DNA of 64,000 nucleotides. It comes from Thermoanaerobaculia bacterium. GTDB taxonomy: Bacteria; Acidobacteriota; Thermoanaerobaculia; UBA5066. Position numbers and translations under genes: made by a program. Positions 737-57,852 of this stretch are shown one piece after another. The stretch spans positions 77,228 through 141,227 of the forward strand of contig CAWEJK010000009.1 of the NCBI GenBank assembly GCA_963809425.1, in the 5' to 3' direction. The notes beneath the pieces are model-generated. The model did not search any database. It was given only the letters and a program-made list of their open reading frames with translations, and was not told the DNA's origin. Numbering within the stretch: position 1 is the stretch's first letter; the number at the start of each line of letters is the position of its first letter.

Positions 737-1966
737 TCAGCGCGCGCGGACGACCCAGGTGCCGGCCGCGAGGTCCTGAAGGGCCCTCTTGTCCTTTTCG
801 AAGAAGGCCAGGATCCACCCGAGGCCCAGCGGCAGTCCCGCGAGCACGAGGACGACCGCGCGGATCAGAGCCGCCTTCCAGCCGATGCCACGTCCCCCGA
901 TCTCCCCGCGTTTGACGACCGTGAGCCCGAGAAGGGACTTTCCGGGCGTGCGCCCGCGCCACGCCCAGCCTCCGACGACGTACAGCGCGTTCGCGAGCGC
1001 GGCAAGAAGGAACGAGAGGATCGTGATGCCTCGAAAGGCCCAGTCCGGAGCCGCGTCGCGCGTCTGGAGCTCCGCGCGGAAGTAGTCGATCAGGAAGACG
1101 GGAGCGAAGAGGAGCAGGTTGATCGCCGTGAGGATGACGGCGTCGACGAGAGCCGCGAGGAGGCGGGCGAACGGGTTCGCGGCGTTTCGCGGGCCCGCGT
1201 TCAACGCCGGCGCGCGCCGCTCGCGGAAGGCCGCCGCGCGTTCGACCGTCGCGATGCGCGGGGGCGCCTGGGACGAGTTCATCTGGATCGAGACGTCCGC
1301 CAGCTCGCGGGCCGCGGGCGCCGGCGGGAACGGCTCCGCGACCGCCGGGACGCCGTCGGATGGCGCGACGGTCGAGATCTCGTCCGGGGGCCGGAGCGCC
1401 GCCGGGAAGGCCTCGCGGAACCCGGAGCTCGGCCTGACCGGCGTGCCTTTCCGATCGACGTCGCGGAAGAGGTCGGAGGCCGACATTTCGTCGGGTGGAA
1501 CGACGACCGGCGGCGGCGGAACCCCCGGAAGCGTGCTGCCCGGAGCGGGCTCGTAGGTGATCGCGGACGGCTGCGGCGGCGCGGACGCCGCCGGCGCAAC
1601 GGGCGGCACCGCCGACCGCGGCGCCAGCGCCTCCGGCCCGAGGAGCGCGGTGCGCTCGGACGGCGCGTTCGGCGCCACGATGCGAAGGTCGATCACGGCC
1701 GCGCCGATCTGGATGCGATCCCCGCTCTGGAGACGCGTCTCGCGGGAAATCCTCTTGCCGCCCACGTAGGTGCCGTTCGAGGAGTTCAGGTCCTTGACGA
1801 TCGCCTCGCCGCTGTTGAGCGTGAGGAGAGCGTGCGAGCGCGAAACGGATTCGTGTTCGAGCCGAACGGTCGACGTCCGGCTGCGACCGAGCGTGGCCTC
1901 TCCATCCGAGAGGTCGATCTCGCGGCCCTCCACCGAGAGCACGTAGCGGTAGACCTCGGTCGTCAC
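737..1966 (-). CDS. FHA domain protein with C-terminal RDD membrane domain
   Basis: N-terminal FHA signature (LGRSRTSTVRLEHESVSRSHALL...SSNGTYVGGKRI). Pro-rich linker. C-terminal RDD-type TM domain (RLLAALVDAVIL...GRTPGKSLLGLTVV). GTG start overlaps the uvrA-like stop as GTGA (1963-1966). Confidence 0.85.
   Translation of the reverse strand: MTTEVYRYVLSVEGREIDLSDGEATLGRSRTSTVRLEHESVSRSHALLTLNSGEAIVKDLNSSNGTYVGGKRISRETRLQSGDRIQIGAAVIDLRIVAPNAPSERTALLGPEALAPRSAVPPVAPAASAPPQPSAITYEPAPGSTLPGVPPPPVVVPPDEMSASDLFRDVDRKGTPVRPSSGFREAFPAALRPPDEISTVAPSDGVPAVAEPFPPAPAARELADVSIQMNSSQAPPRIATVERAAAFRERRAPALNAGPRNAANPFARLLAALVDAVILTAINLLLFAPVFLIDYFRAELQTRDAAPDWAFRGITILSFLLAALANALYVVGGWAWRGRTPGKSLLGLTVVKRGEIGGRGIGWKAALIRAVVLVLAGLPLGLGWILAFFEKDKRALQDLAAGTWVVRAR
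784..809 (-). repeat. single copy of the TTCNNNGAA-core AT-rich repeat family, in frame in the FHA-RDD gene
   Basis: The + strand reads ccctcttgtccttttcgaagaaggc. It encodes AFFEKDKRA on the minus strand and matches the reverse consensus CCCTCTTCACCTTCTAAGAA. Confidence 0.5.
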
Positions 1967-3117
1967 GGTGACGGAAATTGTACCCGCCTCCGCAGCGCCG
2001 CGGCGGTCGGCGTGCCGCCGAGGGCGGCGAGAGCCCCGGGAGTCCCCGAAAACACGAGGCGCCCGCCGGCCGGACCCCCGTCGGGACCCAGTTCCACGAG
2101 GTAATCCGCGCGGGCCAGGAATGCCGTGTTGTGCTCCACGGCGACGATCGAATGGCCGGCCGCGATGAGGCGCCGGAGGACCGCGAGGAGCACGTCCACG
2201 TCGGAAGGCGCCAGCCCGGTCGTCGGCTCGTCGAAGATGAAGAGCGCCGGTTCGTCCGGGCCGCCGCTCCTCAGGAAGGACGCGATCTTCAACCGCTGCG
2301 CTTCACCGCCCGAGAGCGTCCCGGTGGACTGGCCGAGCGTGAGATAGCCGAGACCCGCTTCCGCGAGCGGCGCGAGCCGCTCGGCGATCGCGCGGACGTC
2401 GGCGAAGAGGTCGCGCGCCTCGTCCACCGTCGTGGCGAGAAGCTCGTCCACGTTTCGTCCGCGCAGGCGGACCTCGAGCACGACGGACTTGAATCGCCGC
2501 CCGTCGCAAACGTCGCACACGACCGTCACGTCGGCGAGGAACTGCATGTCCACCGTCACGACGCCGGCGCCCTCGCAACGCTCGCAGCGGCCGCCTTTCG
2601 CATTGAAGCTGAACGCTCCCTTCTCGAGGCGGCGCGCCTTCGCGGCGGGCGTGCGCGCGAGAAGCGTCCTGATCTCGTCCCATGCCTTCGTGTACGTGGC
2701 GGCATTCGAGCGCGAGGAGCGCCCGAGCGGCGACTGGTCCACGAGAATCACGTCCGAGACCCTCTCGAGACCCTCGATCGCGTCGTGCGAGCCGACCTCG
2801 TCCACGCCCGGGAGCACGCCCTTTCCCATCCGCTGCCGCGCGCCCGCGGCGAGGACGTCCACGACGAGCGAGGATTTTCCGGAGCCGGACACACCGGACA
2901 CCGCGACGAGCCTGTGGAGAGGGAAAGAGACGGAAATATTTTGAAGATTATTTGCTCGCGCACCCCGGATCAGGATCGATTCGACGGAGCTCAGTTGCAG
3001 ACTGGAAGAAGATATTTTCTTAGAAGGTGAAGAGGGGTCGGGGCGCGTCCTACCAGCCCGCGCACGACCAGCGACCGCGCCGATGCGCGCCGGCGGTTCG
3101 AGCGCGCTTTCGCTCAC
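1963..3117 (-). CDS. uvrA: UvrA-family ABC ATPase, C-terminal ABC module (separate frame from the N-terminal module)
   Basis: ILIRGARANNLQNISVSFPL, Walker A GVSGSGKSS, zinc motifs CERCEG and CDVCDG, signature LSGGEAQR, Walker B FIFDEPT. First plausible start after the N-module stop is GTG 3117. The frame stays open further upstream. Confidence 0.8.
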   Translation of the reverse strand: MSESALEPPARIGAVAGRARAGRTRPDPSSPSKKISSSSLQLSSVESILIRGARANNLQNISVSFPLHRLVAVSGVSGSGKSSLVVDVLAAGARQRMGKGVLPGVDEVGSHDAIEGLERVSDVILVDQSPLGRSSRSNAATYTKAWDEIRTLLARTPAAKARRLEKGAFSFNAKGGRCERCEGAGVVTVDMQFLADVTVVCDVCDGRRFKSVVLEVRLRGRNVDELLATTVDEARDLFADVRAIAERLAPLAEAGLGYLTLGQSTGTLSGGEAQRLKIASFLRSGGPDEPALFIFDEPTTGLAPSDVDVLLAVLRRLIAAGHSIVAVEHNTAFLARADYLVELGPDGGPAGGRLVFSGTPGALAALGGTPTAAALRRRVQFPSP

Positions 3118-3245
3118 ACCCCCTTCTAAGAAAGCGCCGAAGGCGCCCACCGTTTCGGCAGCCAGTGCGTGATTCGACGCAGTCGGCCCGTAACCGCCTG
3201 AGTCCGAAGCAAAGATCTTCTCTCCCTCTCCCTCTCCCTCTTCAG
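2931..3245. repeat. composite AT-rich repeat island at the uvrA-like module junction (copies at 2931-2955+, 3004-3037+, 3115-3138-, 3206-3245-)
   Basis: Copy A is ggaagaagatattttcttagaaggtgaagagggg. Copy B is cacacccccttctaagaaagcgcc. Copy C is gaagcaaagatcttctctccctctccctctccctcttcag. GC-rich filler lies between them. The TAG that ends the N-module ORF (3126-3128) lies inside copy B. Confidence 0.8.
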
Positions 3246-4997
3246 CGATCTGCCAGTCGCCGTGTCCTGTTCCTCCAGCTCCGCGGGCGAACCTTCGAAG
3301 ACGAGCCGGCCGCCTCTGGCGCCGGCGCCGGGGCCGAGGTCGATGACGTGGTCCGCGGCGCGGATCACGTCCGTGTCGTGCTCGACGGCGACGACCGCGT
3401 TGCCGCCCGCCGCGAGCCGCCGGATGACGCCGAGCAGCCGCTCGGTGTCGCGCGGATGGAGGCCGACGGTCGGCTCGTCGAGGACGTAGAGCGTTCCGGT
3501 GAGCGCGTTGCCGATGGCCGAGCCGAGCTGGATGCGTTGGGCTTCTCCGCCCGAGAGCGTGCGCATCGTGCGTGAGAGCGTGAGATAGGAGAGCCCGATC
3601 TCGACGAGCGTCGACACGCGGCGCCGGAGCTCGTCGACGAGCGACGCCCCCCGCGCGCGCTCTTCCGCGAGGGGAAGTGCGCCCTCGAGAAACACGAGCA
3701 GCTCGTCGAGCGTCAGGGCCGCGACCTCGGCGATCGTCTTTCCGGCCAGCGTGACCGCGAGCGCCTCCGGCTTGAGCCGCGCGCCCGCGCAGGCCGGGCA
3801 CGGCGTGTAGCCGCGATAGCGCGAGAGCAGCACGCGGACGTGCACCTTGTAGCGCTTCTTCTCGAGGTACTTGAAGAGCCCCTCGACGCCGTACCAGTCG
3901 CCCGCGCCTTTCCACACGACCTCGCGCTCGCGCGGGGTCAGCTCGTTCCAGGGCACGTTCCAGCGCACCTTGTTCCGCCGGGAGACCGCCCGCAGGTCGT
4001 CGTACGCGCTCTCGTAGGCGGGCGAATTGAACGGCGCGATCGGCCGCCCCGCGAGCGACTTTCGCGGGTCGGGAACGACGCGGGCCGGATCGATGCCCGC
4101 CACGCGCCCGAAGCCCTGGCAGGTCTCGCACGCGCCCCGCGGCGAGTTGAACGAGAAGAGGGCCGGCACGGGATCCGTGAAGCGCCGCGCGCAGGCGTCG
4201 CAGACGAGGCCGCGAAAAAAGCGGCGGGCGGAGGAAAGACCAGGACCCTCTCCGCTCCTCAATGCGAAGAGCTTCCCGTCACCGGAGTCGAATGCCATTG
4301 AAAGGGAAGAGAGAAGTTCCGGATCCGAAGAAGCGAGCACGTGGCGCCCGACGAGCAGCGGAAAGGCTCCAAGCGGCTCCGCCGCTTCCCTCATCTCTTT
4401 CTCATTCAAAGAAATTTCCAGTACGTGACCCAACGCACTGACATAGCGGAAGAAGCCCTGCCTTCTCCACTCCGCGCTCTCGGCGTCGAACGACTGGACC
4501 CTGCGCGGCGCGATCACGAGGATCCGCGCGCCCTCTCCCCATTCTGAAAGCAGGATTTCCCGTAGTCCTTCGACGGTGTGGCGCGTGACGAGTGTGCCGT
4601 CGTTCGGGCACCGAAGAGTCCCCGCCGCCGCGAACAGGAGCCGCAGGACGTCGTGGATCTCGGTCGCGGTCCCCACGGTGGACCGGGCCGAGCGTCCCGG
4701 CGCCTTCTGCTCGATCGCAAGCGCGGGCAGGACGTGCTCGATGAGGTCCACGTCGGGGCGCTCGAGGCGCTCGAGGTACTGCCGGGCGTACGTGGACATG
4801 GATTCGACGAACCGGCGCTGGCCCTCCGCGTAGAGCGTGTCGAAGGCGAGCGAGGATTTCCCGGAGCCCGAAGGGCCCGTGACGACGGTGAACGCGCCGA
4901 CGGGAAAAGAGCACGTCACGTTCTTCAGGTTGTGCGTACGCGCACGCACGACCGTGATCGAAGCGGCGCCCCGCACGGGCTCGGCCCGCCGCGTCAC
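3126..4997 (-). CDS. uvrA: UvrA-family ABC ATPase, N-terminal ABC module
   Basis: Walker A GPSGSGKSSLAFDTLYAEGQRRFVES, Cys motifs CDACARRF, CETCQGFG and CPACAGARL, signature LSGGEAQR, Walker B YVLDEPT. GTG start at 4997 overlaps the methyltransferase stop as GTGA. The ORF-track extension up to 5840 is a shadow frame over the methyltransferase. Confidence 0.8.
   Translation of the reverse strand: MTRRAEPVRGAASITVVRARTHNLKNVTCSFPVGAFTVVTGPSGSGKSSLAFDTLYAEGQRRFVESMSTYARQYLERLERPDVDLIEHVLPALAIEQKAPGRSARSTVGTATEIHDVLRLLFAAAGTLRCPNDGTLVTRHTVEGLREILLSEWGEGARILVIAPRRVQSFDAESAEWRRQGFFRYVSALGHVLEISLNEKEMREAAEPLGAFPLLVGRHVLASSDPELLSSLSMAFDSGDGKLFALRSGEGPGLSSARRFFRGLVCDACARRFTDPVPALFSFNSPRGACETCQGFGRVAGIDPARVVPDPRKSLAGRPIAPFNSPAYESAYDDLRAVSRRNKVRWNVPWNELTPREREVVWKGAGDWYGVEGLFKYLEKKRYKVHVRVLLSRYRGYTPCPACAGARLKPEALAVTLAGKTIAEVAALTLDELLVFLEGALPLAEERARGASLVDELRRRVSTLVEIGLSYLTLSRTMRTLSGGEAQRIQLGSAIGNALTGTLYVLDEPTVGLHPRDTERLLGVIRRLAAGGNAVVAVEHDTDVIRAADHVIDLGPGAGARGGRLVFEGSPAELEEQDTATGRSLKRERERERRSLLRTQAVTGRLRRITHWLPKRWAPSALS
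4295..4562. repeat. three copies of the AT-rich repeat family inside the uvrA-like N module (4295-4316+, 4385-4421-, 4531-4562-)
   Basis: Sequences are ccattgaaagggaagagagaag, cttccctcatctctttctcattcaaagaaatttccag and ccctctccccattctgaaagcaggatttcccg. All are in frame (SSLSMAF, EISLNEKEMREA, REILLSEWGEG). Confidence 0.6.
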
Positions 4998-5581
4998 CGC
5001 GAGAAGACCGCGAGCTGGTTCATGCCGAAGAGAAAGCGCCGGTACGCGACCGGGGAAAGGCCCGCCGCCCGCCCCGCCGTCTCGAGATCCTTGCGCGAGA
5101 GGAGACCTTCGTGCTCTTCGTGGGCGTGGGACGACAGGAGGCCGAGAGCGGCCCCGATCTCCAGCGCGAACCGTCCGTGCGGGTGCGGCGTCGTCGCAAT
5201 CACCCGGCCTCCCGGGGAAAGGAGAGGAGAAAGGCGGCAGAGAATCGCGGGGGGGTCGGCCGCGTGCTCGAGGACCGCGAGGAGGAGGATTGCCTCGAAT
5301 GGCGCCCTCGCCTGGAGCGCCGCCGGAGCCGCGTCTCGACCGATGTCCCATTCGAAGAAATCCCTGTTCGGGAATCTCTCCCGCTGCGCCCCGAGCACGT
5401 CCGGATTCCGGTCGCAGCCGACGTACGCAGGCAACCGCCCCGGAAGATCCGTCAGACCGCAGCCGACGTCGAGCACGCGCGCGCCAGCGGGCACGTGCGG
5501 CAGCGCGGCGGCGAGGCGGAACGCCCCGACGCGCCTCGTGAGCCGGCCATAAAAGGCCGGCGGCCGGGAATTCAAGGACAC
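4994..5581 (-). CDS. class I SAM-dependent methyltransferase
   Basis: Motif I VLDVGCGLTD, followed by LLAVLEH and LSPGGRVI. 195 aa. Translationally coupled to the uvrA-like gene. Confidence 0.85.
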   Translation of the reverse strand: MSLNSRPPAFYGRLTRRVGAFRLAAALPHVPAGARVLDVGCGLTDLPGRLPAYVGCDRNPDVLGAQRERFPNRDFFEWDIGRDAAPAALQARAPFEAILLLAVLEHAADPPAILCRLSPLLSPGGRVIATTPHPHGRFALEIGAALGLLSSHAHEEHEGLLSRKDLETAGRAAGLSPVAYRRFLFGMNQLAVFSR

Positions 5582-5610
5582 GCGGGGGTTTTACACCCTC
5601 CACCGTAAGA

Positions 5611-6105
5611 TTGGCGCCCATGAGCGAACCCGCGTTCACTCTCCGGGCCGCGCTCCCGGCCGACGTGCCCACGATCGTCTCCCTGATCCGCGATCTCGCG
5701 GAGTACGAAAGACAGCCCGAGGACTGCCATGCCGACGCCCGGCTCCTCGAAGAGCACCTGTTCGGGGCGAAGCGATTTGCCGAAGTCGTCCTCGCGGAAC
5801 TCGCCGGCGAGACCGCCGGTTTCGCGCTCTTTTTCCACAACTACTCGACGTGGCTCACCCGGCCGGGTCTCTACCTCGAGGACCTTTTCGTGAAGCCCGC
5901 GTTCCGGGGGCTCGGAATCGGCGAGGCCCTTCTCAGGCATCTCGCCCGGCTCGCGGTCGCCCGCGGCTGCGGGCGCATGGAGTGGAGCGTCCTCGCGTGG
6001 AACGAATCGGCGATCGGATTTTACAGACGCCTCGGAGCCGTTCCGATGGACGGATGGCAGGTCTACCGTCTCGCCGGTGACGCCCTGAACCGTCTCGGGC
6101 GATAA
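5611..6105 (+). CDS. GNAT family N-acetyltransferase (diamine/spermidine acetyltransferase-like)
   Basis: Acetyl-CoA binding motif LFVKPAFRGLGIGEALL. Also WNESAIGFYRRLGA. Alternative ATG start at 5620. Confidence 0.9.
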   Translation: MAPMSEPAFTLRAALPADVPTIVSLIRDLAEYERQPEDCHADARLLEEHLFGAKRFAEVVLAELAGETAGFALFFHNYSTWLTRPGLYLEDLFVKPAFRGLGIGEALLRHLARLAVARGCGRMEWSVLAWNESAIGFYRRLGAVPMDGWQVYRLAGDALNRLGR

Positions 6106-14766: not shown

Positions 14767-15861
14767 GTGGAAACGAGCCGCGAATCGGCGCGCGCCATCA
14801 CCCGCCGACTCGCGCGCTGGTACCGCGCGCACGGACGCTCCCTTCCGTGGCGCCGGACGCGCGACCCCTATGCGATCTGGCTCTCGGAGGTCATGGCGCA
14901 GCAGACGGCGATCGAGGTCGTGGTCCCGCGCTGGGAGCGCTTCCTGTCGCGCTTTCCGACCGTCGCGGCGCTCGCGCGCGCACCGGAGCGCGCGGTACTC
15001 GCCGAGTGGAGCGGTCTCGGCTATTACGCGCGCGCGCGGAATCTGCACCGCGCCGCGAAGGCCGTCGCGAGGGCGGGAGCGTTTCCGCGCACGTTCGAGG
15101 GCCTGAGGGCGCTTCCCGGCATCGGGGCGTACACGGCGGCCGCGGTCTCCTCGATCAGCTTCGGGATCCCCGAGCCCGCCGTGGACGGCAACGTCGTGCG
15201 CGTCCTCTGCCGTCTCCACGGCCTTCGCCTCGATCCGAAGACGCCCGCGACGCTCGCGAGAGTGCGCGCGCTCGCGCGGCCGCTCGTGCCCGCGCGGAGG
15301 CCCGGCGACCACAACCAGGCCGTCATGGAGCTCGGCGCCCTCGTGTGCACCCCGCGCGCGCCTCGCTGTGGCGCGTGCCCCCTGCGCGCGCTCTGCCGGG
15401 CCGCGGCGAGCGGGAAGCCGGAAGGCTTCCCGCGAAGGCCGCGCCGCCCGCAGCCGCGCGCGATTCATCTCGTTGCGGGCATCGTCGAAAGAAAGAAGAA
15501 GATTTTGCTCGTAGAAGACAAAGAGCTCGTGCCGGGACACCTCATCGTGCCTCTGTTTCGCACTCCTGCAGGGGAACGGCCTGCAAAGTTTCTTAGAAGG
15601 GGGTGGAAGCGGCTCACCGGCGGCACGGTCACCGCCGTATCGCGGGTAGCGACGCTTCGCCACTCGGTCCTCGATCGCCGCTATGTCGTCTCCCTCTTCA
15701 CCTTCAAAGAAAATCCACCGGCGCCCCTGCTTCCCCGCCCGCACGAAGCGGGCGGGATCCGTCTCCTCTCGTTTCGTCAGATTTCCCGGCAGGCTCACGG
15801 CGGCCTGCTGCTCAAAGTCCTCGCGGCCTGGCGTGCGCACCGCGCGCGCCAGGCCCGCTGA
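14767..15861 (+). CDS. mutY: A/G-specific adenine DNA glycosylase
   Basis: LPWRRTRDPYAIWLSEVMAQQT, helix-hairpin-helix LPGIGAYTAAAV, Fe-S cluster CTPRAPRCGACPLRALC, and a NUDIX-like C-terminal domain. GTG 14767 is preferred over ATG 14692, which overlaps the divergent gene. Confidence 0.85.
   Translation: METSRESARAITRRLARWYRAHGRSLPWRRTRDPYAIWLSEVMAQQTAIEVVVPRWERFLSRFPTVAALARAPERAVLAEWSGLGYYARARNLHRAAKAVARAGAFPRTFEGLRALPGIGAYTAAAVSSISFGIPEPAVDGNVVRVLCRLHGLRLDPKTPATLARVRALARPLVPARRPGDHNQAVMELGALVCTPRAPRCGACPLRALCRAAASGKPEGFPRRPRRPQPRAIHLVAGIVERKKKILLVEDKELVPGHLIVPLFRTPAGERPAKFLRRGWKRLTGGTVTAVSRVATLRHSVLDRRYVVSLFTFKENPPAPLLPRPHEAGGIRLLSFRQISRQAHGGLLLKVLAAWRAHRARQAR
15487..15719. repeat. three copies of the AT-rich repeat family in the mutY C-terminal domain (15487-15525+, 15583-15612+, 15691-15719-)
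   Basis: Sequences are gaaagaaagaagaagattttgctcgtagaagacaaagag, gcaaagtttcttagaagggggtggaagcgg and tccctcttcaccttcaaagaaaatccacc. They encode ERKKKILLVEDKE, AKFLRRGWKR and SLFTFKENPP. Confidence 0.8.
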
Positions 15862-30024: not shown

Positions 30025-31310
30025 CGGGGAGGGCGCGCCCGGTGCCAGCGAGAGGGCGCGGCCGCGCCGCCCAGAACGGCGCCGATCCACATCGCGAGCG
30101 ACGCCATGACGTCCGAGGAAGATACGGGCGGGGTTTCCGAGGGATAGCCGAGCCGGCGGCGAAGTGCGGCGAGTGAAAGCCACTCGAGGACCAGGGCCGC
30201 TTTCGCCTCGAACGAGAGGAGCAGAAGGAAAACCAGAAGCGCGATGGGTCGCGTCTGCGCGCCGCTCACGGCCGCGGCACCGCCGCCGACCCGGGCCACG
30301 CCGGACCACGTGCCATTCGAAGAAAACAACAACATGACCGCGTCCGAGACGGCCGCGAGAATCGCGAGGGCGAACAGCACGAGCAACCGCGGCCGAAGCC
30401 AGAGATCGCAGGCGAGGACGAACGCGCCCTTCGGGCTCTTCGCCGCGATTTGGAGGAGATCGCCGAAGCCCGTCGCGAGGAGCTTCAGATGGCCGCCGAA
30501 CCACCGCGCCCGCGACCGCGCCATCGCGCCGGATTCCGCGGAGGGCTCGTCGAAGCCGGTCGGGCCTTCGAGGGCGCGGATGCGCGTCCCGGCCGCGAGG
30601 AGAAGCAGCGTCGCCTCGGAATCCTCGACGGTCGTGCGCGTGGCCGCCGCCGGCCCGGCGCGAAACGCCCGCGGCGAAAACCCCATCGCCTTGCCGCGCA
30701 GGCGAACCGGCAGGCCTTCGGCGTCGCGCGCGAGATCGTCCTCGGCGGCCTGGGCGAGAGAAAGCGCCTCGACGCGCGGCGCGCCGGGCCCCGGAACGCC
30801 CGCGGGACGAACGGGCAGCTGAAAGACCTCGGCGCCCGCCGGAACCCTCAGGTCGCGGAAAAAACCCTCGGGCAGCCGCATGTCGGCGTCGAAGACGAGA
30901 ATGAACGAGTAATCGTCCAGCCGCGCGCCGAGTTCTTCGGCGAGGAACGCCAACGCGTGCCCTTTCGCGGGGCCGGGGGATTTCTTAGAAAGGTAATGGA
31001 CGCCGTCGCGCGCGAGGCGTGCTTCGGCATCGGGGTCGGGGCCGTCCAAGATGACGAGGACGTCGACGCCGGAAATCTTCTCTTCGCTCTTCTCCGATTC
31101 TCTCTTCAAATCCGCTGCGAGGTCCCCCACGCGCGCGCCCTCGGCTCGCGCCGGGATCACGGCCAGGATCTTCCCGGGCGCGCGAACGCCGAAGGTGTCC
31201 CGCGCGCCCCTCCGCGGCGCCGCGAGGCGCCGCAGCCTCAGCGCCGCATCGAGCGCGGGCAGCGCCGCCGCAAGGGCCAGCAGGCCGCAGAGGACGGTCG
31301 TCGTGTCCAC
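30021..31310 (-). CDS. glycosyltransferase family 2, membrane-integrated
   Basis: ILAVIPARAE, VLVILDG, LVFDADMRLP, followed by C-terminal TM segments. Confidence 0.8.
   Translation of the reverse strand: MDTTTVLCGLLALAAALPALDAALRLRRLAAPRRGARDTFGVRAPGKILAVIPARAEGARVGDLAADLKRESEKSEEKISGVDVLVILDGPDPDAEARLARDGVHYLSKKSPGPAKGHALAFLAEELGARLDDYSFILVFDADMRLPEGFFRDLRVPAGAEVFQLPVRPAGVPGPGAPRVEALSLAQAAEDDLARDAEGLPVRLRGKAMGFSPRAFRAGPAAATRTTVEDSEATLLLLAAGTRIRALEGPTGFDEPSAESGAMARSRARWFGGHLKLLATGFGDLLQIAAKSPKGAFVLACDLWLRPRLLVLFALAILAAVSDAVMLLFSSNGTWSGVARVGGGAAAVSGAQTRPIALLVFLLLLSFEAKAALVLEWLSLAALRRRLGYPSETPPVSSSDVMASLAMWIGAVLGGAAAPSRWHRARPPR
30975..31114. repeat. convergent pair of the AT-rich repeat family inside the GT2 gene (30975-30999+, 31071-31114-)
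   Basis: Sequences are gggggatttcttagaaaggtaatgg and ggaaatcttctcttcgctcttctccgattctctcttcaaatccg. They encode VHYLSKKSPG and LKRESEKSEEKISG. Confidence 0.7.
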
Positions 31311-35183: not shown

Positions 35184-36923
35184 TCACGACGTCGACGACG
35201 CGGTCCGGGGCGATTTCGGACGCCTTCTTTCGCGGCGCGTCGAGACCTCCACGACGCCCTTCGCGAGGCCCTTGCCGCCCACGACGACCCGAAGCGGGAA
35301 GCCGATGAGGTCGATGTCCTTGAACTTCACGCCGGGGCGCTCGTCGCGGTCGTCGTAGAAGACCTCGACGCCGGCGGCCCTGAGATCCTCGTAGAGCCTG
35401 TCCGCCGCCTCGAGGACGTGCGCGTCGCGCTGCAGGACGGCGACCACGCAGGCGAAGGGCGCGAGCGGCACGGGCCAGACGATCCCGACGTCGTCGTGGT
35501 TCTGCTCGATGGCGGCCGCGACCGTGCGTCCGAGGCCGAGCCCGTAGCAGCCCATCGCGAGCGGCACCATCTTCTGGCTCTGGTCGGCGACCTCGCACTT
35601 CATCGCCTCGGAGTACTTCGTCCCGAGCTTGAAAATGTGGCCGACCTCGATGCCGCGCTTGATCCGGAGGAGGCCGCCCTTCGGGGCGGGCGACGGATCG
35701 CCGTCGCGGGCGGTCGCGACCTCCACGACTCCCTTGAACGCGGGAATGCCCATCACGTCGCGCGGGATGGAGACGTTCGAGTGATGAAGATCGTCCTTGT
35801 TCGCCCCGCACCAGACGTTGCGGCCGTGCTCGAGAGAGCGGTCGACGAAGACGAAGACGGGATTTTCTGCGAAAGGAAGAAGAGCGAGCGGCCCGACGAA
35901 GCCGGGGCGCGTCCCCGTTACCTTTCGAAGAATCTCCTCCGAAGCCAGCTTCACATGGAGCGCGCCGATCGCCTTCGGGAGCTTGACCTCGTTGATCGCG
36001 AGATCCCCGCGGATCAGGACGGCCGCAAGCCACGCCTTGCCGTCCGCGCCGACTGCCTCGTAGATCATCGTGTTGACGATGCGGTCCGGCGTCGTTCCGA
36101 GGTGCTGCGCCTGGCCCTCCGTCGTCGTGATGCCCGGTGTCGGCGCGTTCGCCTCTCCGAACGGCTTCTCGGCCTCCCCCGCCCACGGCTCGGGCAGCGG
36201 GCCCGTGACCGCCTTCTCGACGTTCGCGCCATAGTCGCCGGCATCGGCGAAGACGAGCGCGTCCTCGCCCGTCTCGGCCACGACCATGAACTCCTGCGAA
36301 GCCGAGCCGCCGATGGCGCCCGAATCGGCGTCCACGAGCGCGTACTCCAGCCCGCATCGCTCGAAGATGCGCCGGTACGCGGCGTCCATCTTCTTGTAGT
36401 GGAGGTCCAGCCCCTTCTGGTCGACGTCGAACGAGTACGCGTCCTTCATCAGGAACTCGCGGCCGCGCAGGAGCCCGAAGCGGGGGCGGATCTCGTCGCG
36501 GAACTTCGTCCGGATCTGGTAGAGGTTGAACGGCAGCTGCCGCCACGACGTGACCGAGCGCCGCACCATGTCCGTGACGGCTTCCTCGGCGGTCGGCGCG
36601 AGCGCGAACCTCCCGCCCTTGCGGTCCTCGAGGTGGAAGAGGATGCCGTCGGCCACGTAGCGGTCCCAGCGGCCCGACTCCACCCACAGCTCCTTCGGCT
36701 GGAGGATGGGCAGGTCGACCTCCATCGCGCCGGTCGCGTCCATCTCCTCGCGCACGATCTCGATCATCTTCCTGAGCGCGCGAAAACCGAACGGCGTGAA
36801 CGAATAGATGCCCGCGGCGAGCTTCTGGATCATCCCCGCCCGGTAGAGAAGCTGATGCGAGACGACCTCGGCGTCGCCGGGCACCTCGCGGAGGGTCACG
36901 AGAAACGACTGCGACCAGCGCAT
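35184..36923 (-). CDS. proS: proline--tRNA ligase (bacterial type with editing domain)
   Basis: RFGLLRGREFLMKDAYSF, IKRGIEVGHIFKLGTKYS, MGCYGLGLGRTVAAAIEQ, and an anticodon-binding tail. Confidence 0.95.
   Translation of the reverse strand: MRWSQSFLVTLREVPGDAEVVSHQLLYRAGMIQKLAAGIYSFTPFGFRALRKMIEIVREEMDATGAMEVDLPILQPKELWVESGRWDRYVADGILFHLEDRKGGRFALAPTAEEAVTDMVRRSVTSWRQLPFNLYQIRTKFRDEIRPRFGLLRGREFLMKDAYSFDVDQKGLDLHYKKMDAAYRRIFERCGLEYALVDADSGAIGGSASQEFMVVAETGEDALVFADAGDYGANVEKAVTGPLPEPWAGEAEKPFGEANAPTPGITTTEGQAQHLGTTPDRIVNTMIYEAVGADGKAWLAAVLIRGDLAINEVKLPKAIGALHVKLASEEILRKVTGTRPGFVGPLALLPFAENPVFVFVDRSLEHGRNVWCGANKDDLHHSNVSIPRDVMGIPAFKGVVEVATARDGDPSPAPKGGLLRIKRGIEVGHIFKLGTKYSEAMKCEVADQSQKMVPLAMGCYGLGLGRTVAAAIEQNHDDVGIVWPVPLAPFACVVAVLQRDAHVLEAADRLYEDLRAAGVEVFYDDRDERPGVKFKDIDLIGFPLRVVVGGKGLAKGVVEVSTRRERRRPKSPRTASSTS
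35856..35944. repeat. convergent pair of the AT-rich repeat family inside proS (35856-35886+, 35915-35944-)
   Basis: Sequences are gacgggattttctgcgaaaggaagaagagcg and ccgttacctttcgaagaatctcctccgaag. They encode LLPFAENPV and ASEEILRKVTG. Confidence 0.65.
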
Positions 36924-39885: not shown

Positions 39886-40703
39886 GCGGCCGCCGCGGCG
39901 CGCCGCACGCGCTCGAGAAAGCGCTCGGTGAGGAGGACGAACTCGTCCTCCCTCTCGACGATCAGCGCGTGACCCGAGCCCGGCACGACGACGAAGCTCG
40001 CGCCGGGAATCGCGGCCGCCACCGCCTCGGTCCGCTCGAGAGGCATCGCCGCGTCCCGGCCCGCGGCGACGACGAGGACCGGGCAGGCGATCTTCGGGAG
40101 GACGGGCCGGAGGTCGACCGTCGCGAGCGCCCCGAGGAGGCCCTCGAGCCCCAGGAACCACGCGTCCGGCAGGAGCCCGACCTGCGCGCGGCGGGCCGCG
40201 ATCTCCTCCGCGCGAGCGGCCTGCCATTCGGACGTGTACGCGAGGTGGACGATCGCGTCGTAGACCTCGGTGCGCTCCCCGCCGCGCGCCGCGGCCCGCA
40301 CGGCCTTCCCGAGTCTCGCGCCGGGCTCGCCGAGCCCTTCGTCCGCGACGTCCGTGACCGTCGCCGCGACGAGGGACGTGACGCGCTCCGGGTGGCGGGC
40401 CGCGAAAAGAAGGCCGACGTACGCGCCGAAGGACGCGGCGACGAGGTCGACCCGTCTCTCTCCGAGGGCGTCGAGGAGCGCCGCGACGTCGTCCGCGTGC
40501 TCCTCCATGGAGGCGCGCGGCTCGCCGGGCGAGAGAAGCTGGCCGCGGAAATCGCAGCGGATGACGCGGTGCCGCGCCGCAAGGCGCCGGGCGATCGGCT
40601 CCCACGCGGCGATCGACATCATTCCGCCGTTGAGGAGCAGCAGCGGGGGGCCTTCCCCGTCGACACGGTGGGTCAGGACGCCCGAAATAGGCGTCGTGCT
40701 CAC
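39882..40703 (-). CDS. alpha/beta hydrolase
   Basis: LLLLNGG, nucleophile elbow ASFGA, C-terminal GSGHALIVE. GTGA overlap with the acyl-CoA ligase stop. Confidence 0.85.
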   Translation of the reverse strand: MSTTPISGVLTHRVDGEGPPLLLLNGGMMSIAAWEPIARRLAARHRVIRCDFRGQLLSPGEPRASMEEHADDVAALLDALGERRVDLVAASFGAYVGLLFAARHPERVTSLVAATVTDVADEGLGEPGARLGKAVRAAARGGERTEVYDAIVHLAYTSEWQAARAEEIAARRAQVGLLPDAWFLGLEGLLGALATVDLRPVLPKIACPVLVVAAGRDAAMPLERTEAVAAAIPGASFVVVPGSGHALIVEREDEFVLLTERFLERVRRAAAAA

Positions 40704-41830
40704 TTCGGATCGTCCGAGGAAGAAGAAGAGGAAGATTTCCTAGAAAGGTAAGAGAGCCGGAGATCTCCCTTCACCACTTTTCCGTATGGGGTGCGCGGGA
40801 GCGAGTCCACGAAGACGAAATCGCGGGGGACCTTGTAGCGCGCGAGCCGCCCCTCGACGAACGCCGCCAGTTCGGCCTTCTCTCCCTCTCTCTCTCTTAC
40901 TTTCAAAGAAATCTTCTCTTCTCCCCTCTTTTCCTCTCGGCGAACCACGAAAGCCACGCCGACCTCGCCCCACTTCTCGTCCGGCACCCCGACGACCGCG
41001 ACGTCCTTCACTCCCGGGTGCTGGAAGAGGACCCCCTCGATCTCGGCCGGGTAGACGTTGACGCCTCCCGAAATGAGCATGTCTTTCTTGCGCCCGGCGA
41101 TCGTGAAGAAACCGTCCGCGTCCTTCTTCGCGAGGTCGCCCGTGTGGAACCAGCCCCCGGCGTCGAGCGAGGCCGCCGTGGCCTCCGGGTTCCGGTAGTA
41201 GCCCTTGCAGACGTGGGGCCCCTTGAGGAGGAGCTCGCCGACCTCGCCGACCGGCACCTCGCGCCCGTCCTCTCCCGTCAGCTTCGCCTCGGTGAACATC
41301 ATCGGCCGGCCGATCGAGCCGGCCTTCCGCACCGAGTCCGCGAGGCTCATCGCGAAACAGTTCACGCCGACCTCCGTGAGGCCGTAGCCCTGCTTGAACG
41401 CCGCGCCGCGCTTCTGCCAGGTCTCGATGATGTCGAGCGGCAGCGGCGCGCCTCCGCTGATGAAGTAGCGGACGCTCGAGAAGTCGGCCGACGCCCACGC
41501 GGGGTCCTCCTGGAGCATGCGGAAGATCGTCGGCACGCCGAGGATCACCGTGCAGCGCTCCTTGCCGATCGTCGCGAGGATCTCGGCCGGGTCGAAGCCC
41601 GCGAAGAGGACGATCGTCCCGCCCACGGCGAAGATCGGCGTCAGGAACGCGCCCAGCCCGCCCGCGTGGTAGAGCGGCGTGTAGACGGGCGACACGTCGT
41701 CCTCGCGAAGCTGCCACGAGACGACCGTGTTCACGGCGTTCCACGCGACCATCCGGTGCGGCACCATCACGCCCTTCGGCTTGCCGGTCGTGCCCGACGT
41801 GTACAGCAGGCAGTAGAGGTCTTCGGGACC
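40700..41830 (-). CDS. AMP-dependent acyl-CoA synthetase/ligase, C-terminal fragment (frame c)
   Basis: PEDLYCLLYTSGTTGKPKGVMVPH, YHAGGL, GYGLTE, WFHTGDL, and YKVPRDFVFVDSLPRTPYGKV. The first M in the track ORF is at 41770, but the frame is open to about 41830. Confidence 0.8.
   Translation of the reverse strand, partial: GPEDLYCLLYTSGTTGKPKGVMVPHRMVAWNAVNTVVSWQLREDDVSPVYTPLYHAGGLGAFLTPIFAVGGTIVLFAGFDPAEILATIGKERCTVILGVPTIFRMLQEDPAWASADFSSVRYFISGGAPLPLDIIETWQKRGAAFKQGYGLTEVGVNCFAMSLADSVRKAGSIGRPMMFTEAKLTGEDGREVPVGEVGELLLKGPHVCKGYYRNPEATAASLDAGGWFHTGDLAKKDADGFFTIAGRKKDMLISGGVNVYPAEIEGVLFQHPGVKDVAVVGVPDEKWGEVGVAFVVRREEKRGEEKISLKVREREGEKAELAAFVEGRLARYKVPRDFVFVDSLPRTPYGKVVKGDLRLSYLSRKSSSSSSSDDPK
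40716..40938. repeat. convergent pair of the AT-rich repeat family flanking the last conserved acyl-CoA ligase motif (40716-40758+, 40877-40938-)
   Basis: aagatttcctagaaaggtaagagag (40732-40756) matches the reverse complement of 40892-40915 (aagatttctttgaaagtaagagag). The copies encode the tail LSYLSRKSSSSSSSDDPK* and REEKRGEEKISLKVREREGEK. Confidence 0.8.
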
Positions 41831-42101
41831 AGGAGAAGAGGAGATTTCTGCAGCGGCGGCCGTACGGCGCCGCTGGAAGAGGAGAGAAAGAGAAGAGAAG
41901 ATTTCTGAGAAGGGGAAGAGGGCCCGCGCGCGCCTTCGGGCGGTCGCGGTTGGCGCGGCCGGCGAGCTCGCGGGCTTCGCCTTTCCGCTCTCCGACCCCT
42001 TCTAAGCACGTCCTCTTCGGACCTTCCAGATGGCGCCGAAGGAGCCTGTCGAGCGGCACGCCCTGACAGTTCCTTTCCCCTCTTAAGCAGATATTTCGCG
42101 G
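41831..42101. repeat. composite AT-rich repeat island disrupting the acyl-CoA ligase (copies at 41831-41853+, 41875-41924+, 41988-42020-, 42067-42101-)
   Basis: Direct repeats gagaagaggagatttctg and gagaagagaagatttctg flank the hairpin cagcggcggccgtacggcgccgctg (41851-41875). The inverted partners are ccccttctaagcacg and cccctcttaagcagatatttc. The gene changes frame twice in this interval. Confidence 0.75.
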
Positions 42102-42441
42102 TCTCTTCGAACCCTGCCCCATAGATCAGAGCCTTCGGCTCGGCGTCCGAAACAACACCTTCCAGCTCCCCCGCCGTCTGCCGCGTATTCAACGGGACGA
42201 GGACGACGCCCGTCTTGCCGCACGCGAAGAAGACGTCGAGGAATTCGACGCGGTTGCGGGCGAGGAGGGCCAGGCGGTCGCCCTTCTTGAGGCCGAGGCC
42301 CTCGACGAGAGCGCGGGCCGCGGCCCGCGCGCGCGCGTCCAGCTCGGCGTACGTGAAACGGCGGCCGGTCGCGACCTCGACGAGCGCCGTCTTCTCCGGC
42401 GAGAGGCGCGCGCGTTCGCCGAGGACGTCGCCCGAGATCAC
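42100..42441 (-). CDS. AMP-dependent acyl-CoA synthetase/ligase, N-terminal fragment (frame a)
   Basis: ISGDVLGERARLSPEKTALVE...TYAELDARARAAARALVEGLGLKKGDRLALLARNRVEFLDVFFACGKTGVVLVPLNTR...ALIYGAGFEET. Downstream of about 42100 the track ORF 41767..42441 is Arg/Pro-rich noise. Confidence 0.75.
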
Positions 42442-50887: not shown

Positions 50888-51880
50888 TCAGGAGGTGGCG
50901 AGCACGAGGCGTCTCTCGCGGGATGCCGCGGCGGCGAGCGCCACGCCGATCCCCGCGAGCGACGCGAGACCCCAGACGAGAGGTCCCGCGTAAGGGACGA
51001 GAGAGGCAAGGCCGAGGAGCAGGAGGCCGGCCGCGAGCGCCGCCGGATCGCCGAAGAGAAGGTCGCCGCGCGTCGCGCCGCGCGTGACGCGGCGGCCCAG
51101 CGCGACGAAGAGCGCCGCGAGACCGAACACCTTTGCCGCGGCGAGCGCGCCGAGCAGCGCGACGCCGAGGACGAGCGCGAATCGGGCCGGCAGAACGGAC
51201 AGCGCGAACGCCGCGAGGAAGACCGCGGTCAGAACCGCGGTCGCTCCGAGCGCGGCGAGGAACGCGAAGCGGCCCCGCAAGCCGTCCGCGGCCCGGAGGA
51301 GGAGGCGGGGCGCGAGGAAGAGCAGACAAAAAGAGACGACGAGCCACGCGAAGAGGAGAAAGAGCCGGAACGAAAGGACGAGAGGCGAGGTCCTGCCGGA
51401 GGTCAGCGGCGAGGTTTCGAGCTCGGAAAGGACCGCCGCCTCGAGCGCCGAGATCGTCCGGACGCGTCCGCCGACCTGCGGATGGCTTCGCGCGGACGCG
51501 GGGATCGAAGAGGTCGAGGAAGAGGAAGAGGAACCGGAGGGATTTTCTGAGAAGGTCAGAGAACCGCCGACCGAGAGGACATCGCCATCGATGATTGCGC
51601 CCCGCTCGATCGTCGCGCTCGCGCCGAGAAGGATGAGATCGCGGTGAATGCGGCCCGACACGACCGCCGAGCCTCCTCCAACGAGGACCGCGCTCCCTCC
51701 CAATTCACCCTCTAAGAGAATCCCCCTTCCGAGAACCACGACATCCCCGGCTCGAATCGTCCCTTTCGGAATGGAAATCGATTCTTCGGCCTCGGCGTTC
51801 GCGCGGAGCGCGAACGCGCCTCCGAGCAGAAAAAGAAAGAGGGGAATCGCCCGCCTGGCTCTCGCGGTCGCGCCGCTCAC
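50888..51880 (-). CDS. membrane protein with bactofilin-like beta-helical (polymer-forming) periplasmic domain
   Basis: Signal/anchor segment, repetitive G-x-V/I-x-G strands ([40 protein letters not shown]...), a poly-Ser linker, and about 5 TM segments. Confidence 0.65.
51506..51733. repeat. convergent pair of the AT-rich repeat family in the bactofilin-like gene (51506-51564+, 51693-51733-)
   Basis: Sequences are cgaagaggtcgaggaagaggaagaggaaccggagggattttctgagaaggtcagagaacc and ctccctcccaattcaccctctaagagaatcccccttccgag. They encode [19 protein letters not shown] and [13 protein letters not shown]. Confidence 0.7.
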
Positions 51881-56784: not shown

Positions 56785-56890
56785 CCTTTCTAAGAAGATT
56801 TTCCTTGAAGGGCGAATGAGCGACGCGCTCGCGAGCGATGCTTCGGCGCGCTCTGCCGCTCTTCTCTTCACCTTCTAAGCAGAATTCGTC
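56783..56890. repeat. intergenic inverted pair of the AT-rich repeat family between convergent genes
   Basis: Arm gattttccttgaagggcgaatgagcg (56798-56823) pairs with the reverse complement of 56858-56890 (gacgaattctgcttagaaggtgaagagaagagc). A GC-rich spacer lies between the arms. An extra overlapping reverse core cctttctaagaag lies at 56786-56798. Confidence 0.75.
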
Positions 56891-56940: not shown

Positions 56941-57852
56941 TCAGGAAACGGCGTGCAGCGGCGGCTCGCCGCGCGCGAAGCGCGCGATCTCCTCGCACGC
57001 GAGGCGCGCCATCGCGAGGCGCGTCTCGTGCGTCGCGGAGCCGAGGTGCGGGAGCAGGACGACGTTCGGCAGCGCGACAAGTCCGGGGTGGATCGCGGGC
57101 TCCTTCTCGAAGACGTCGAGTCCCGCGCCGAAGAGATGCTTCGAAGCGAGAGCTGCCGCGAGAGCGGCTTCGTCGACGATGGGACCCCGCGCGGTGTTGA
57201 CGAGGATGGCTCCCTCTTTCATTCTCAGAAACTCTTCTTCTCCGAACCTCCCGCGCGTTTCGTCGGTCAGCGGCGCGTGGATCGACAGCACGTCGACTTT
57301 CGAAAGAAATTCCCCGAATTCCTCTTCTCTCCGGTTCTTGTCGAAAGCCAGCACCTTCATCCCGAACGCCTCGCCGCGGCGCGCGACGGCGCGGCCGATG
57401 CGGCCCATGCCGTAAATCCCGAGCGTCTTCCCCTGAAGCGACACGCCGAGGAGCTCCTGCGGCTTCCAGCCGTCCCACGTCCCGGAGCGGGCAAGCGCAT
57501 CGCCTTCGTGCAGCCGCCGCGACACCCCGAGAATCAGGGCCCACGCGAGGTCCGCCGTCGCGTCCGTCAGAACGTCCGGCGTGTTCGTCACGAGGATCCC
57601 GCGGGCACGGCACGCGGCGAGGTCGATGTGGTCGACGCCCACCGAGTGGCTCGCCACGAGCCCGAGGCCGGGCGCGGCCGCGAGAACGTCCTCGGTGACG
57701 CGTTCGCGCGGCGTGGGAAGAAGAGCCCGCACGGTCGCGAGGCGCGGCCACTCGGGGGCCGGCAACCCCCCGGCGCCGACGGTGACGTCGTGTCCGGAGA
57801 GGATCTCCGTCGTGGAGGGCTCGACGAGGGGTCTCCCGACGAAGATCCTCAC
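56941..57852 (-). CDS. D-isomer-specific 2-hydroxyacid dehydrogenase (glyoxylate/hydroxypyruvate reductase-like)
   Basis: GIYGMGRIGRAVARR, MKEGAILVNTARG, LPHLGSAT. GTG 57852 is in a GTGA overlap with the small upstream ORF. Confidence 0.9.
   Translation of the reverse strand: MRIFVGRPLVEPSTTEILSGHDVTVGAGGLPAPEWPRLATVRALLPTPRERVTEDVLAAAPGLGLVASHSVGVDHIDLAACRARGILVTNTPDVLTDATADLAWALILGVSRRLHEGDALARSGTWDGWKPQELLGVSLQGKTLGIYGMGRIGRAVARRGEAFGMKVLAFDKNRREEEFGEFLSKVDVLSIHAPLTDETRGRFGEEEFLRMKEGAILVNTARGPIVDEAALAAALASKHLFGAGLDVFEKEPAIHPGLVALPNVVLLPHLGSATHETRLAMARLACEEIARFARGEPPLHAVS
57209..57334. repeat. two copies of the AT-rich repeat family in the 2-hydroxyacid dehydrogenase gene (57209-57248-, 57295-57334-)
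   Basis: Sequences are gctccctctttcattctcagaaactcttcttctccgaacc and gactttcgaaagaaattccccgaattcctcttctctccgg. They encode FGEEEFLRMKEGA and NRREEEFGEFLSKV. Confidence 0.6.

Follow-up and report, generated by a model that had tools for sequence, protein, structure and literature searches.

Selfish palindromic repeats that are inserted in frame in protein-coding genes have been described as Rickettsia palindromic elements (RPEs; PMC10969869, reviewing Ogata et al. 2000), while REP doublets that form hairpins and are mobilised by RAYT transposases are known as REPINs (PMC3116915). In SBW25, the REPIN doublet spacing is 71 and 110 bp, and only 14 out of 1067 16-mers overlap genes, REPINs being extragenic (PMC3116915). 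The uptake signal sequences (USS/DUS) occur in coding regions (PMC2817400), and inward-facing pairs around an intragenic segment constitute the architecture of intragenic invertons (bioRxiv 10.1101/2023.03.11.532203). Here we describe a family of paired AT-rich motifs in a 64,000-nt stretch of a Thermoanaerobaculia bacterium (assembly GCA_963809425.1, contig CAWEJK010000009.1, positions 77,228 to 141,227; further referred to as the window), and the uvrA gene, which is split in this assembly between its two ABC modules at an island of such motifs. By analogy, the family appears to be closest to REPINs in architecture, to RPEs in its in-frame habit, and to uptake sequences in its in-place persistence, each of these comparisons failing on at least one defining feature. 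The GC content of the window, which is part of a 419-kb contig, is 69.5%, and its protein matches point to the class Thermoanaerobaculia (Acidobacteriota).

The uvrA gene is located on the minus strand (4997 to 1963), its GTG start at 4997 overlapping the stop codon of the upstream methyltransferase gene, and the frame changes between its two ABC modules. The parts of the gene as assembled and the elements of the linker island, including four motif copies, A to D, are as follows.

3126–4997, minus strand: N-terminal ABC module as assembled, from the GTG start at 4997 in frame –3 to the TAG at 3126–3128.
3216–3243 (28 nt), minus strand (mRNA strand): polypurine tract with (GGGAGA)x3, which holds the frame break and is one base short of the in-frame "+9" allele.
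About 3205–3245, minus strand: copy C, an old degenerate forward copy (polypurine run and AAGATCTTTGCTTCGG), encoding KRERE..IFAS; the outer arm pairing with copy D.
3141–3204, minus strand: clade-specific part of the linker, SDSGGYGPTASNHALAAETVGAFGA, conserved, and in frame in each of the close relatives.
3108–3136, minus strand: copy B, a forward copy (core 3122–3133), translated as FLEGGV when in the true frame; it supplies the TAG at which the N module seems to stop.
3036–3107: GC-rich, internally palindromic interior of the A/B hairpin element, as folded.
3004–3035, plus strand: copy A, a reverse copy relative to the gene (core 3016–3027), read as SSPSKKISSSS.
2983–3003, minus strand: right flank accompanying copy A (LQLSSVE), missing in empty and left-only alleles.
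2916–2957, plus strand: copy D, polypyrimidine/AT-rich, on the conserved codons of ANNLQNISVSFPL; degenerate, complementary to copy C.
1963–3228, minus strand: linker from the break onward and C-terminal ABC module, frame –2, with the stop TGA at 1963–1965.

That the two modules are in different frames had been stated in the first-pass annotation, made from the sequence alone, and is confirmed by the open reading frames (ORFs), the TIGR00630 profile, tblastn, and the phase of GC content at third codon positions (GC3). The N module corresponds to the ORF 3126–5840 (minus strand), and the C module, to the ORF 1963–4131/4278 (minus strand) in another frame. Positions 2–597 of the TIGR00630 profile are found in the N part, and positions 609–923, in the C part. 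Similarly, tblastn with the UvrA protein of the relative P0004 places residues 1–588 on 4997–3228 in frame –3, and residues 586–988 on 3228–1966 in frame –2. The GC3 phase switches across the 2900–3300 region, which has no clear codon periodicity and a lower GC content. The N module, with its zinc and UvrB-binding insertions, aligns without breaks to UvrA of T. maritima (3pih, residues 4–575), and the C module aligns to the second module of the same protein; both Walker A motifs, GPSGSGKSS and GVSGSGKSS, and the Cys clusters are present. TIGR00630 is the NCBIfam equivalog for class I UvrA with the curated cut-off of 729.8 bits; the two assembled parts score 483.8 and 390.0 bits, both below the cut-off, and addition of one base yields 868.4 bits. 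Hence, this is one class I uvrA gene, whose halves are out of frame in the assembly: the single polypeptide characteristic of class I UvrA is observed in about 100 relatives, while here it is interrupted by the frame change at approximately 3228.

The relatives were collected by a search with the N-module ORF (about 100 full-length proteins of 925–1056 aa), about 20 Thermoanaerobaculia relatives were used in protein and DNA alignments, and 12 related loci, in DNA alignments of the tract. In the relatives uvrA is a single ORF with the same long linker in frame, and, apart from a few truncated ones, it is intact in all of the about 100 listed. The linker of P0004 reads TGRSLRKEREILFASDAEGYGPTASSHAIAAETVGAFGAFLEGDKGGGRTRSGAYSPSKKIQPDALLRMQHDAIRVMGARANNL, whereas the N frame of the window reads TGRSLKRERERERRSLL..., and the C frame, ...EGEGEKIFASDSGGYGPTASNHALAAETVGAFGAFLEGGVSES...SSPSKKISSSSLQLSSVESILIRGARANNL; as far as KRERE the linkers of the relatives match the N frame of the window, and from IFASD on they match its C frame. 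Since the homology with the relatives in the C frame extends over almost the entire linker, the frame switch must fall in the purine run encoding KRERE, and in the tblastn alignment with P0004 the switch from frame –3 to frame –2 indeed occurs at 3228. Two in-frame alleles of the tract, 9 nt apart, are present among the relatives, and the window tract is 8 nt longer than the short allele (L001/2/3/87/88/90) and 1 nt shorter than the long one (L006/89/92/93/97), the assembled spacing from CTG (3245–3243) to ATC (3216–3214) being 26 nt. Insertion of one base at 3217/3218 produces a single 1011-aa ORF with an 89-aa linker. One of the two earlier readings of the split, a 1-nt indel near the first GATC, is supported by the DNA alignments and tblastn, with a small correction, as this GATC lies at 3214–3217 and not at 3213–3216. 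Gene anatomy, break position and linker homology are hence observed directly. The tract does not follow the pattern of phase variation by simple sequence repeats, as it consists of (GGGAGA)x3, and the relatives, 9 nt apart, nevertheless stay in frame.

On the reading that we favour, the apparent split would result from a single base lost in the 28-nt polypurine tract of copy C (3216–3243), and the ensuing frameshift would turn the TAG of copy B, normally read within TTC TTA GAA, into a stop. This TAG (3126–3128) does lie inside the core of copy B (3122–3133, CCTTCTAAGAAA), as had been noted. The organism would then make one UvrA of 1011 aa.

The ratio of nonsynonymous to synonymous substitution rates (dN/dS), calculated against three relatives, is 0.13–0.16 in the N module and 0.13–0.16 in the C module, with dS of 0.3–0.5, that is, we observe no relaxation of constraint downstream of the break. 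Being equally low on both sides, dN/dS implies that the break is either an assembly error, which is the favoured option, or a very recent event. The missing base is probably an artefact and not a real allele, and our moderately confident explanation is a consensus (base-calling or assembly) error at a low-complexity, length-variable site. Alternatively, the 1-nt deletion might be real, that is, a very recent inactivating mutation or the majority allele, caused by slippage in the polypurine/hairpin tract, in which case uvrA would have become a pseudogene only recently, or its product would be a truncated N module; we treat this as a possible, yet clearly less probable, explanation. It is consistent with the variable length of the tract among the relatives (9-nt differences, ERER-type expansions), with two genes of the window being broken at such islands, and with recurrence of breaks at the same islands elsewhere (the uvrA N-site in P0104, the acyl-CoA synthetase N-site in P0154). 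Weighing on the other side are dN/dS as low in the C module as in the N module, the absence of further decay in uvrA, the intact gene in the about 100 listed relatives with the exception of few truncated ones, and the origin of the broken relatives from seemingly error-prone assemblies. Besides, loss of uvrA is seldom fixed in free-living bacteria.

Relatives with a broken uvrA or acyl-CoA synthetase gene (P0104, P0105, P0154) come from long records named "contig_N", which, judging by the names, look like Flye long-read output. In P0105, uvrA is broken within the conserved ...DEPTVGLH.RDT... segment of the ABC module, and this position suggests that assemblies of this kind carry indel errors.

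In the window, the second broken gene encodes an acyl-CoA synthetase (40700–42441, minus strand), whose frame is disrupted in its own repeat island at 41840–42150. In tblastn with P0126, residues 1–164 are aligned in frame –2 down to 41947, and residues 152–577 in frame –1 from 41989. Compared to the in-frame relatives, the gene has a self-compensating +1/+2 pair about 30 nt apart and a further +1 near 41866. The earlier statement that motif copies are carried in frame in every other host gene therefore does not hold, as this gene (42441 to 40700) is an exception. A crude check of coding potential and start codons points to no further evident frame break elsewhere in the window, and a second gene broken in its own repeat island, with the rest of the window clean, is a pattern typical of a locally poor consensus and favours this explanation.

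Taken together, equal constraint, intact relatives, the second broken gene and the broken "contig_N" relatives make a consensus error preferable to a real recent frameshift. Several observations weigh against it. Three other long-contig assemblies (L097–L099) read the island in frame, so its correct assembly is possible; hairpin and polypurine tracts are also genuine hot spots of indels in vivo; and the compensating +1/+2 indels 30 nt apart in the acyl-CoA synthetase gene look more like evolution than random error.

Another explanation retains a functional UvrA, recoded by a –1 shift in the purine tract or made as two polypeptides, with a stop at the TAG of copy B and a restart at the GTG 9–12 nt past it, preceded by the Shine–Dalgarno-like GAAGGGGG; we deem it, in both variants, very improbable. 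A GTG in the C frame indeed occurs just after the TAG, with a purine-rich stretch upstream, and ABC modules of other proteins can function as separate chains. However, a slippery heptamer of the X XXY YYZ type is absent from the N frame in 3100–3400, the GAAGGGGGTGTG string is merely copy B, read as in-frame FLEGGV in all relatives, the promoter scan yields no promoter-like site in the island, and the same frame arrangement is found in no relative, all of them being in frame. Lacking a slippery heptamer, an internal promoter-like site and a relative with the same arrangement, programmed recoding is unlikely.

The break is not caused by the arrival of the island, which is old, clade-wide and normally translated. 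The canonical linker was correctly described as short: it comprises about 18 aa in T. maritima UvrA, or about 11 profile positions, and 20–24 aa in P0098 and P0075, the remotest members of the clade. The alignment of UvrA orthologues shows that the 89-aa linker of the window is far beyond the canonical length, and, the extra length being repeat-derived, the island is, as had been proposed, an addition to a compact linker; the long linkers of the relatives are not devoid of repeat similarity, as they retain FLEG...PSKK. The interval between the conserved motifs flanking the linker is larger than the previously given about 235 nt: the distance from the end of TGRSL (3243) to GARANNL (2964) is 278 nt, and to SILIRGA, 263 nt. 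In Thermoanaerobaculia the linker has been widened from about 18 aa to 40–110 aa by nested in-frame hairpin-forming repeats, in which the pair A/B, with its GC-rich palindromic interior, lies within the outer pair C/D.

Three of the copies, A (plus strand), B and C (both minus strand), had been listed in the first-pass annotation, and all three are real, C being degenerate, but the fourth copy, D, had been overlooked. On mRNA the four form nested inverted pairs in the order C (forward), B (forward), A (reverse), D (reverse). Copies A (3016–3027, plus strand) and B (3122–3133, minus strand) are a perfect inverted pair (12 out of 12 nt, TTTCTTAGAAGG / CCTTCTAAGAAA). The predicted fold of the two copies and the interior is a long hairpin (–66.5 kcal/mol, z = –1.9), around which the C/D arms form an outer stem. 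Next to the core, a compensatory change in the stem is observed (TATG/CATA in L097 vs TGTG/CACA in L098). Copy C is found in all relatives, being more motif-like (FFEGE/FSFEGE) in the distant P0065 and P0073, and the entire segment 3141–3245 (copy C and ...FASDSGGYGPTASNHALAAETVGAFGA) is in frame in every close relative.

The inner element is polymorphic. It is full in the window and in L097–L099, and full with a short interior in L001; only the left half is retained in L003 and L087/88/90, and only the right half, in L089/92/93. It is absent from L002 (...AFGALESIVIRGA) and L006 (...AFGASIRVVGA), where about 2984–3133 is missing. The interior 3036–3107, accordingly absent from L002 and L006 and shortened in L001, has another length in L097–L099. 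As distant relatives (P0048, P0054, P0055) carry the full inner element, the simplest history would seem to be an old insertion followed by repeated internal deletions.

These alleles bear on the other earlier reading of the split, by which 3004–3245 (242 bp), or the A/B element, would be excised from DNA or skipped, restoring the frame. The arithmetic is correct, as 242 nt equals 3n+2 and the removal joins TGRS to SLQLSSVES..., and the A/B element does show presence/absence polymorphism. Nevertheless, the reading itself is unsupported, and we find it barely credible: 3141–3245 is a conserved translated part of the linker in all close relatives, the natural element-free alleles have other boundaries (about 2984–3133), and comparison of filled and empty sites has revealed no target-site duplication. 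Since the element-free alleles (L002, L006) lack only about 2984–3133, the restoration of the frame by a 242-bp deletion is a one-in-three coincidence; moreover, with the break located upstream, at about 3228, the frame of the window would stay broken after removal of 2984–3133.

The pairs could also be recombination sites of an invertase, as in intragenic invertons, with the uvrA island scrambled or in the OFF state. In line with this, they always face inward and enclose 45–150 nt inside genes. However, the interior in the window has the same orientation and frame as in L097–L099 (GGV..ALEP...), one base accounts for the whole break, pairs are also found in essential genes (proS), where an inversion would be lethal, and no uvrA or acyl-CoA synthetase orthologue has an inverted interior, the latter being a weak test, as it relies on assembled sequences. 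We consider inversion highly unlikely.

The expanded linker would be translated as a disordered tether. In an AlphaFold2 model of P0016, linker residues 593–664, located between the well-folded ABC modules, have pLDDT of 24–39, consistent with disorder; the predicted disorder would explain the tolerance of this site to insertions. For the uvrA island, Rfam yields no family even at a permissive E-value (and nothing at the gathering score in the whole window), and the terminator and promoter scans, nothing above chance. The comparison of sense and antisense fold stability as evidence of an RNA function was dropped, as the result was mixed and the G richness of the sense strand is expected to confound it. 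Just upstream of copy B, mRNA ...GCCGAAACGGTGGGCGCCTTCGGCGC... (3141–3165) contains the GC hairpins CCG-AAA-CGG and GCGCC-UUC-GGCGC, which encode AAETVGAFGA and whose nucleotides are conserved even in the relatives without the A/B element.

The motif is by no means restricted to the linker. With at most two mismatches, the 12-mer occurs 26 times in the window (1.06 expected), and a 24-nt position weight matrix (PWM) yields 19 hits vs at most one in shuffled sequences; no long repeat family was detected when the entire window was searched for repeats with an 11-nt seed, and the family emerges only with the 12-mer and PWM. With at most one mismatch allowed, the window and 113 kb of related loci contain 1.25–1.5 copies per 10 kb, compared to 0.08 in unrelated UvrA loci (367 kb). 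The latter controls are loci of distant UvrAs (Bacteroidota and others) from a scan with a back-translated pattern of P0004, in which L006 alone was useful as a relative. A resemblance to an Illumina adapter (GAAGAGCG) was considered and an adapter artefact ruled out, as the motifs recur in frame at orthologous positions across many independent assemblies.

The conserved unit spans about 20 nt, with (G/T)GAAGAG following the core on its inner side, and is often accompanied by an outer polypurine run. Adjacent copies that lie within 250 nt of each other always face inward (8 out of 8 in the window, 24 out of 24 with the relatives included), other arrangements being absent; the spacing is 52–177 nt with a cluster at 106–112 nt. 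Inward-facing pairs comprise 16 of the 19 PWM hits, and two of the three single ones (30981, 35864) have a degenerate partner recognizable by eye. Nine out of ten pairs of the window lie inside coding sequence, the hosts being uvrA (two sites), mutY, proS, the genes of a glycosyltransferase, the acyl-CoA synthetase (two sites), a protein without Pfam matches, and a HEAT-cyclophilin; the host frames are open through the copies with the exception of the two broken islands. Outside the uvrA linker, the sites of this family are:

4293–4414: second uvrA pair, around native N-module sequence (VLEISLNEKEM...SDPELLSSLSMA), forward copy at 4293 and reverse copy at 4403.
15589–15712: pair in mutY (FLRRGW...SLFTFKEN); an orthologous pair is present in L093.
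30981–31085: forward copy and degenerate partner in the glycosyltransferase gene.
35864–35936: pair in proS (EEILRKV...LLPFAENP).
40736–40911: pair in the acyl-CoA synthetase gene, on both sides of the sequence for the native C-terminal 40 aa.
41902–42090: acyl-CoA synthetase island, copies at 41902, 41998 and 42079; the gene is frame-broken there.
51544–51719: pair in the gene of the protein without Pfam matches, which, judging by its translation, looks like a repetitive beta-helix followed by hydrophobic segments.
56800–56882: the only intergenic pair, between convergent genes.
59285–59452: pair in the HEAT-repeat region of the HEAT-cyclophilin gene.

Depending on its orientation, the motif encodes either FLEG, FLRR or ISLKV, or else PSKK, LSKK, TFKEN or TFSEN, and its central TAG/TAA is mutated wherever it is in frame. 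Given many peptide readings and mutated in-frame stops, the conserved entity is the nucleotide sequence and not the peptide. Between the arms, native orthologous sequence is found in mutY, proS, the acyl-CoA synthetase C-terminus, the HEAT-cyclophilin gene and the uvrA N-site, and some arms lie on native residues with little or no change in length, while at uvrA A/B and the acyl-CoA synthetase N-site the insertion is a contiguous palindrome. The latter N-site is also polymorphic, with an empty allele in L100 alongside filled ones. At the filled/empty junctions of uvrA and the acyl-CoA synthetase gene no target-site duplication is visible, although arms resembling terminal inverted repeats are present. 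The native interiors fit neither the model of miniature inverted-repeat transposable elements or REPINs, nor that of uptake sequences.

The codon choice in the arms is also unusual. In copy D, the conserved ANNLQNISVSFPL is encoded with nine rare AT-ending codons (GCA AAT AAT CTT CAA AAT ATT .. TCT .. CCT), while GC3 of the genome is 0.909, and TTA, CAA and GCA constitute 0.1, 1.5 and 2% of their own codon families, respectively; this choice is kept in most relatives, not in L006 or L099. Along seven orthologous uvrA genes, six 12-codon windows over the motif arms are among the seven richest in AT at third codon positions (AT3, 0.39–0.72 vs the gene mean of 0.147), copy D being the second-highest patch, and the seventh rich window is the 3' end of the gene. 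Persistence of AT3-rich arms at synonymous divergence of 0.3–0.5 implies that something (selection, conversion or drive) acts on the nucleotides of the motif. Covariation of the arms at the acyl-CoA synthetase C-terminus was also examined, without a clear outcome either way.

In the detailed comparison with the known systems, RPEs were compared by architecture. Like RPEs, members of the family have a length of about 100–150 nt and hairpin potential, reside in frame and free of stops in unrelated housekeeping genes at permissive sites, here a predicted disordered linker, and vary in presence among orthologues. In contrast to RPEs, the host is a free-living, 70% GC lineage of Acidobacteriota, only arms of roughly 20 nt are conserved and not a whole element or peptide, the arms are read in all usable frames, and many pairs enclose native coding sequence of the host. 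With REPINs the family shares two conserved short inverted units with a poorly conserved spacer (here, the 52–177 nt spacing), hairpin formation with a compensatory change in the stem, half elements as decay products, and long vertical persistence. The differences are the intragenic location of nine out of ten pairs and the AT-rich, polypurine arms, compared to GC-rich palindromes with a GTAG/CGTC tag in REPINs. A RAYT gene is not seen within the 64 kb, which is too short a stretch to test for it, and the native interior of the pairs is incompatible with movement as a REPIN-like unit. The features in common with USS/DUS are a short motif at a high clade-wide density (1.25–1.5 per 10 kb vs 0.08), permissive protein positions, several frames with stop-avoiding variants, apparent in-place evolution of some copies (mutY, proS, copy D), and nucleotides held against the mutational bias; on the contrary, the copies here form obligatory inward-facing pairs 50–180 nt apart, and some are clear insertions with a hairpin interior. 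As for the split of uvrA itself, it has no essential difference from frameshift-split genes in draft or long-read metagenome assemblies and from fresh pseudogenes, with the same one-base indel at low complexity and an undecayed downstream part, and amounts to such a case.

The split is thus real as an observation and ordinary as a gene split, and of moderate interest is the repeat family found via the island. In the literature searched we have found no description of such repeats in Thermoanaerobaculia or Acidobacteria, and the paired AT-rich motif family in coding sequences is apparently undescribed. Tentatively, and rather as a long shot, the pairs may represent a system under selection at the nucleotide level in coding sequences of hundreds of Thermoanaerobaculia housekeeping genes, and not decaying selfish DNA; their role could be to bind a protein or to form long-range stems in mRNA or single-stranded DNA. 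We suggest nucleotide-level selection because the pairs are always inward-facing, often bracket native segments, and are kept in codons that the genome almost never uses. If so, indels at these sites would be favoured by the hairpin and polypurine arms in the host genes, the repair genes uvrA and mutY among them. The nucleotide constraint, if real, would offer a tractable example of a non-coding signal superimposed on coding sequence at 70% GC, and would also give rise to disordered linkers specific to the lineage and to local instability through indels. The repeats of this class of Acidobacteriota join the doublet hairpins of REPINs, the in-frame intragenic lifestyle of RPEs, and the persistence of uptake sequences in place and at the codon level. 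In annotation, uvrA is best entered as a single gene that probably contains a one-base error, and not as a split gene or one that a mobile element has interrupted; the acyl-CoA synthetase gene and similar calls in related metagenome-assembled genomes warrant equal caution.

The intergenic pair (56800–56882) is located between an ABC_tran_2 gene (plus strand, ending at 56784) and a 2-hydroxyacid dehydrogenase gene (minus strand, ending at 56941). It could be a bidirectional terminator hairpin; a simple terminator scan and a promoter scan at this pair yield nothing above chance.

On the plus strand of the window, the coding signal of a membrane-protein-like gene starts near 7942, and no in-frame ATG, GTG or TTG lies between 6931 and about 7970; the gene may have an unusual start or another small indel.

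In the relatives, the uvrA N-module pair site (4293/4403) hosts other in-frame repeats. Two other in-frame repeat types are observed at the same two permissive uvrA sites, in the linker and in the N module, "SRMTDVKGPGPLRGARSAPLTSAIREE" and "YFPNDRCQGSxTAARRAxRALDIGHSGRR" (uvrA of P0034, P0104, P0014, P0021 and P0105; L095 and other loci), neither of them being present in the window, and hence several families of in-frame elements seem to exist in Thermoanaerobaculia. Finally, a weaker copy of the motif, TTTCTTCGAATG (DFFEWD), is found at 5349–5360 (minus strand) in the methyltransferase gene upstream of uvrA, and several relatives have a copy at a matching distance upstream of uvrA, e.g., L001 at 958, and L097 and L098 at 138.

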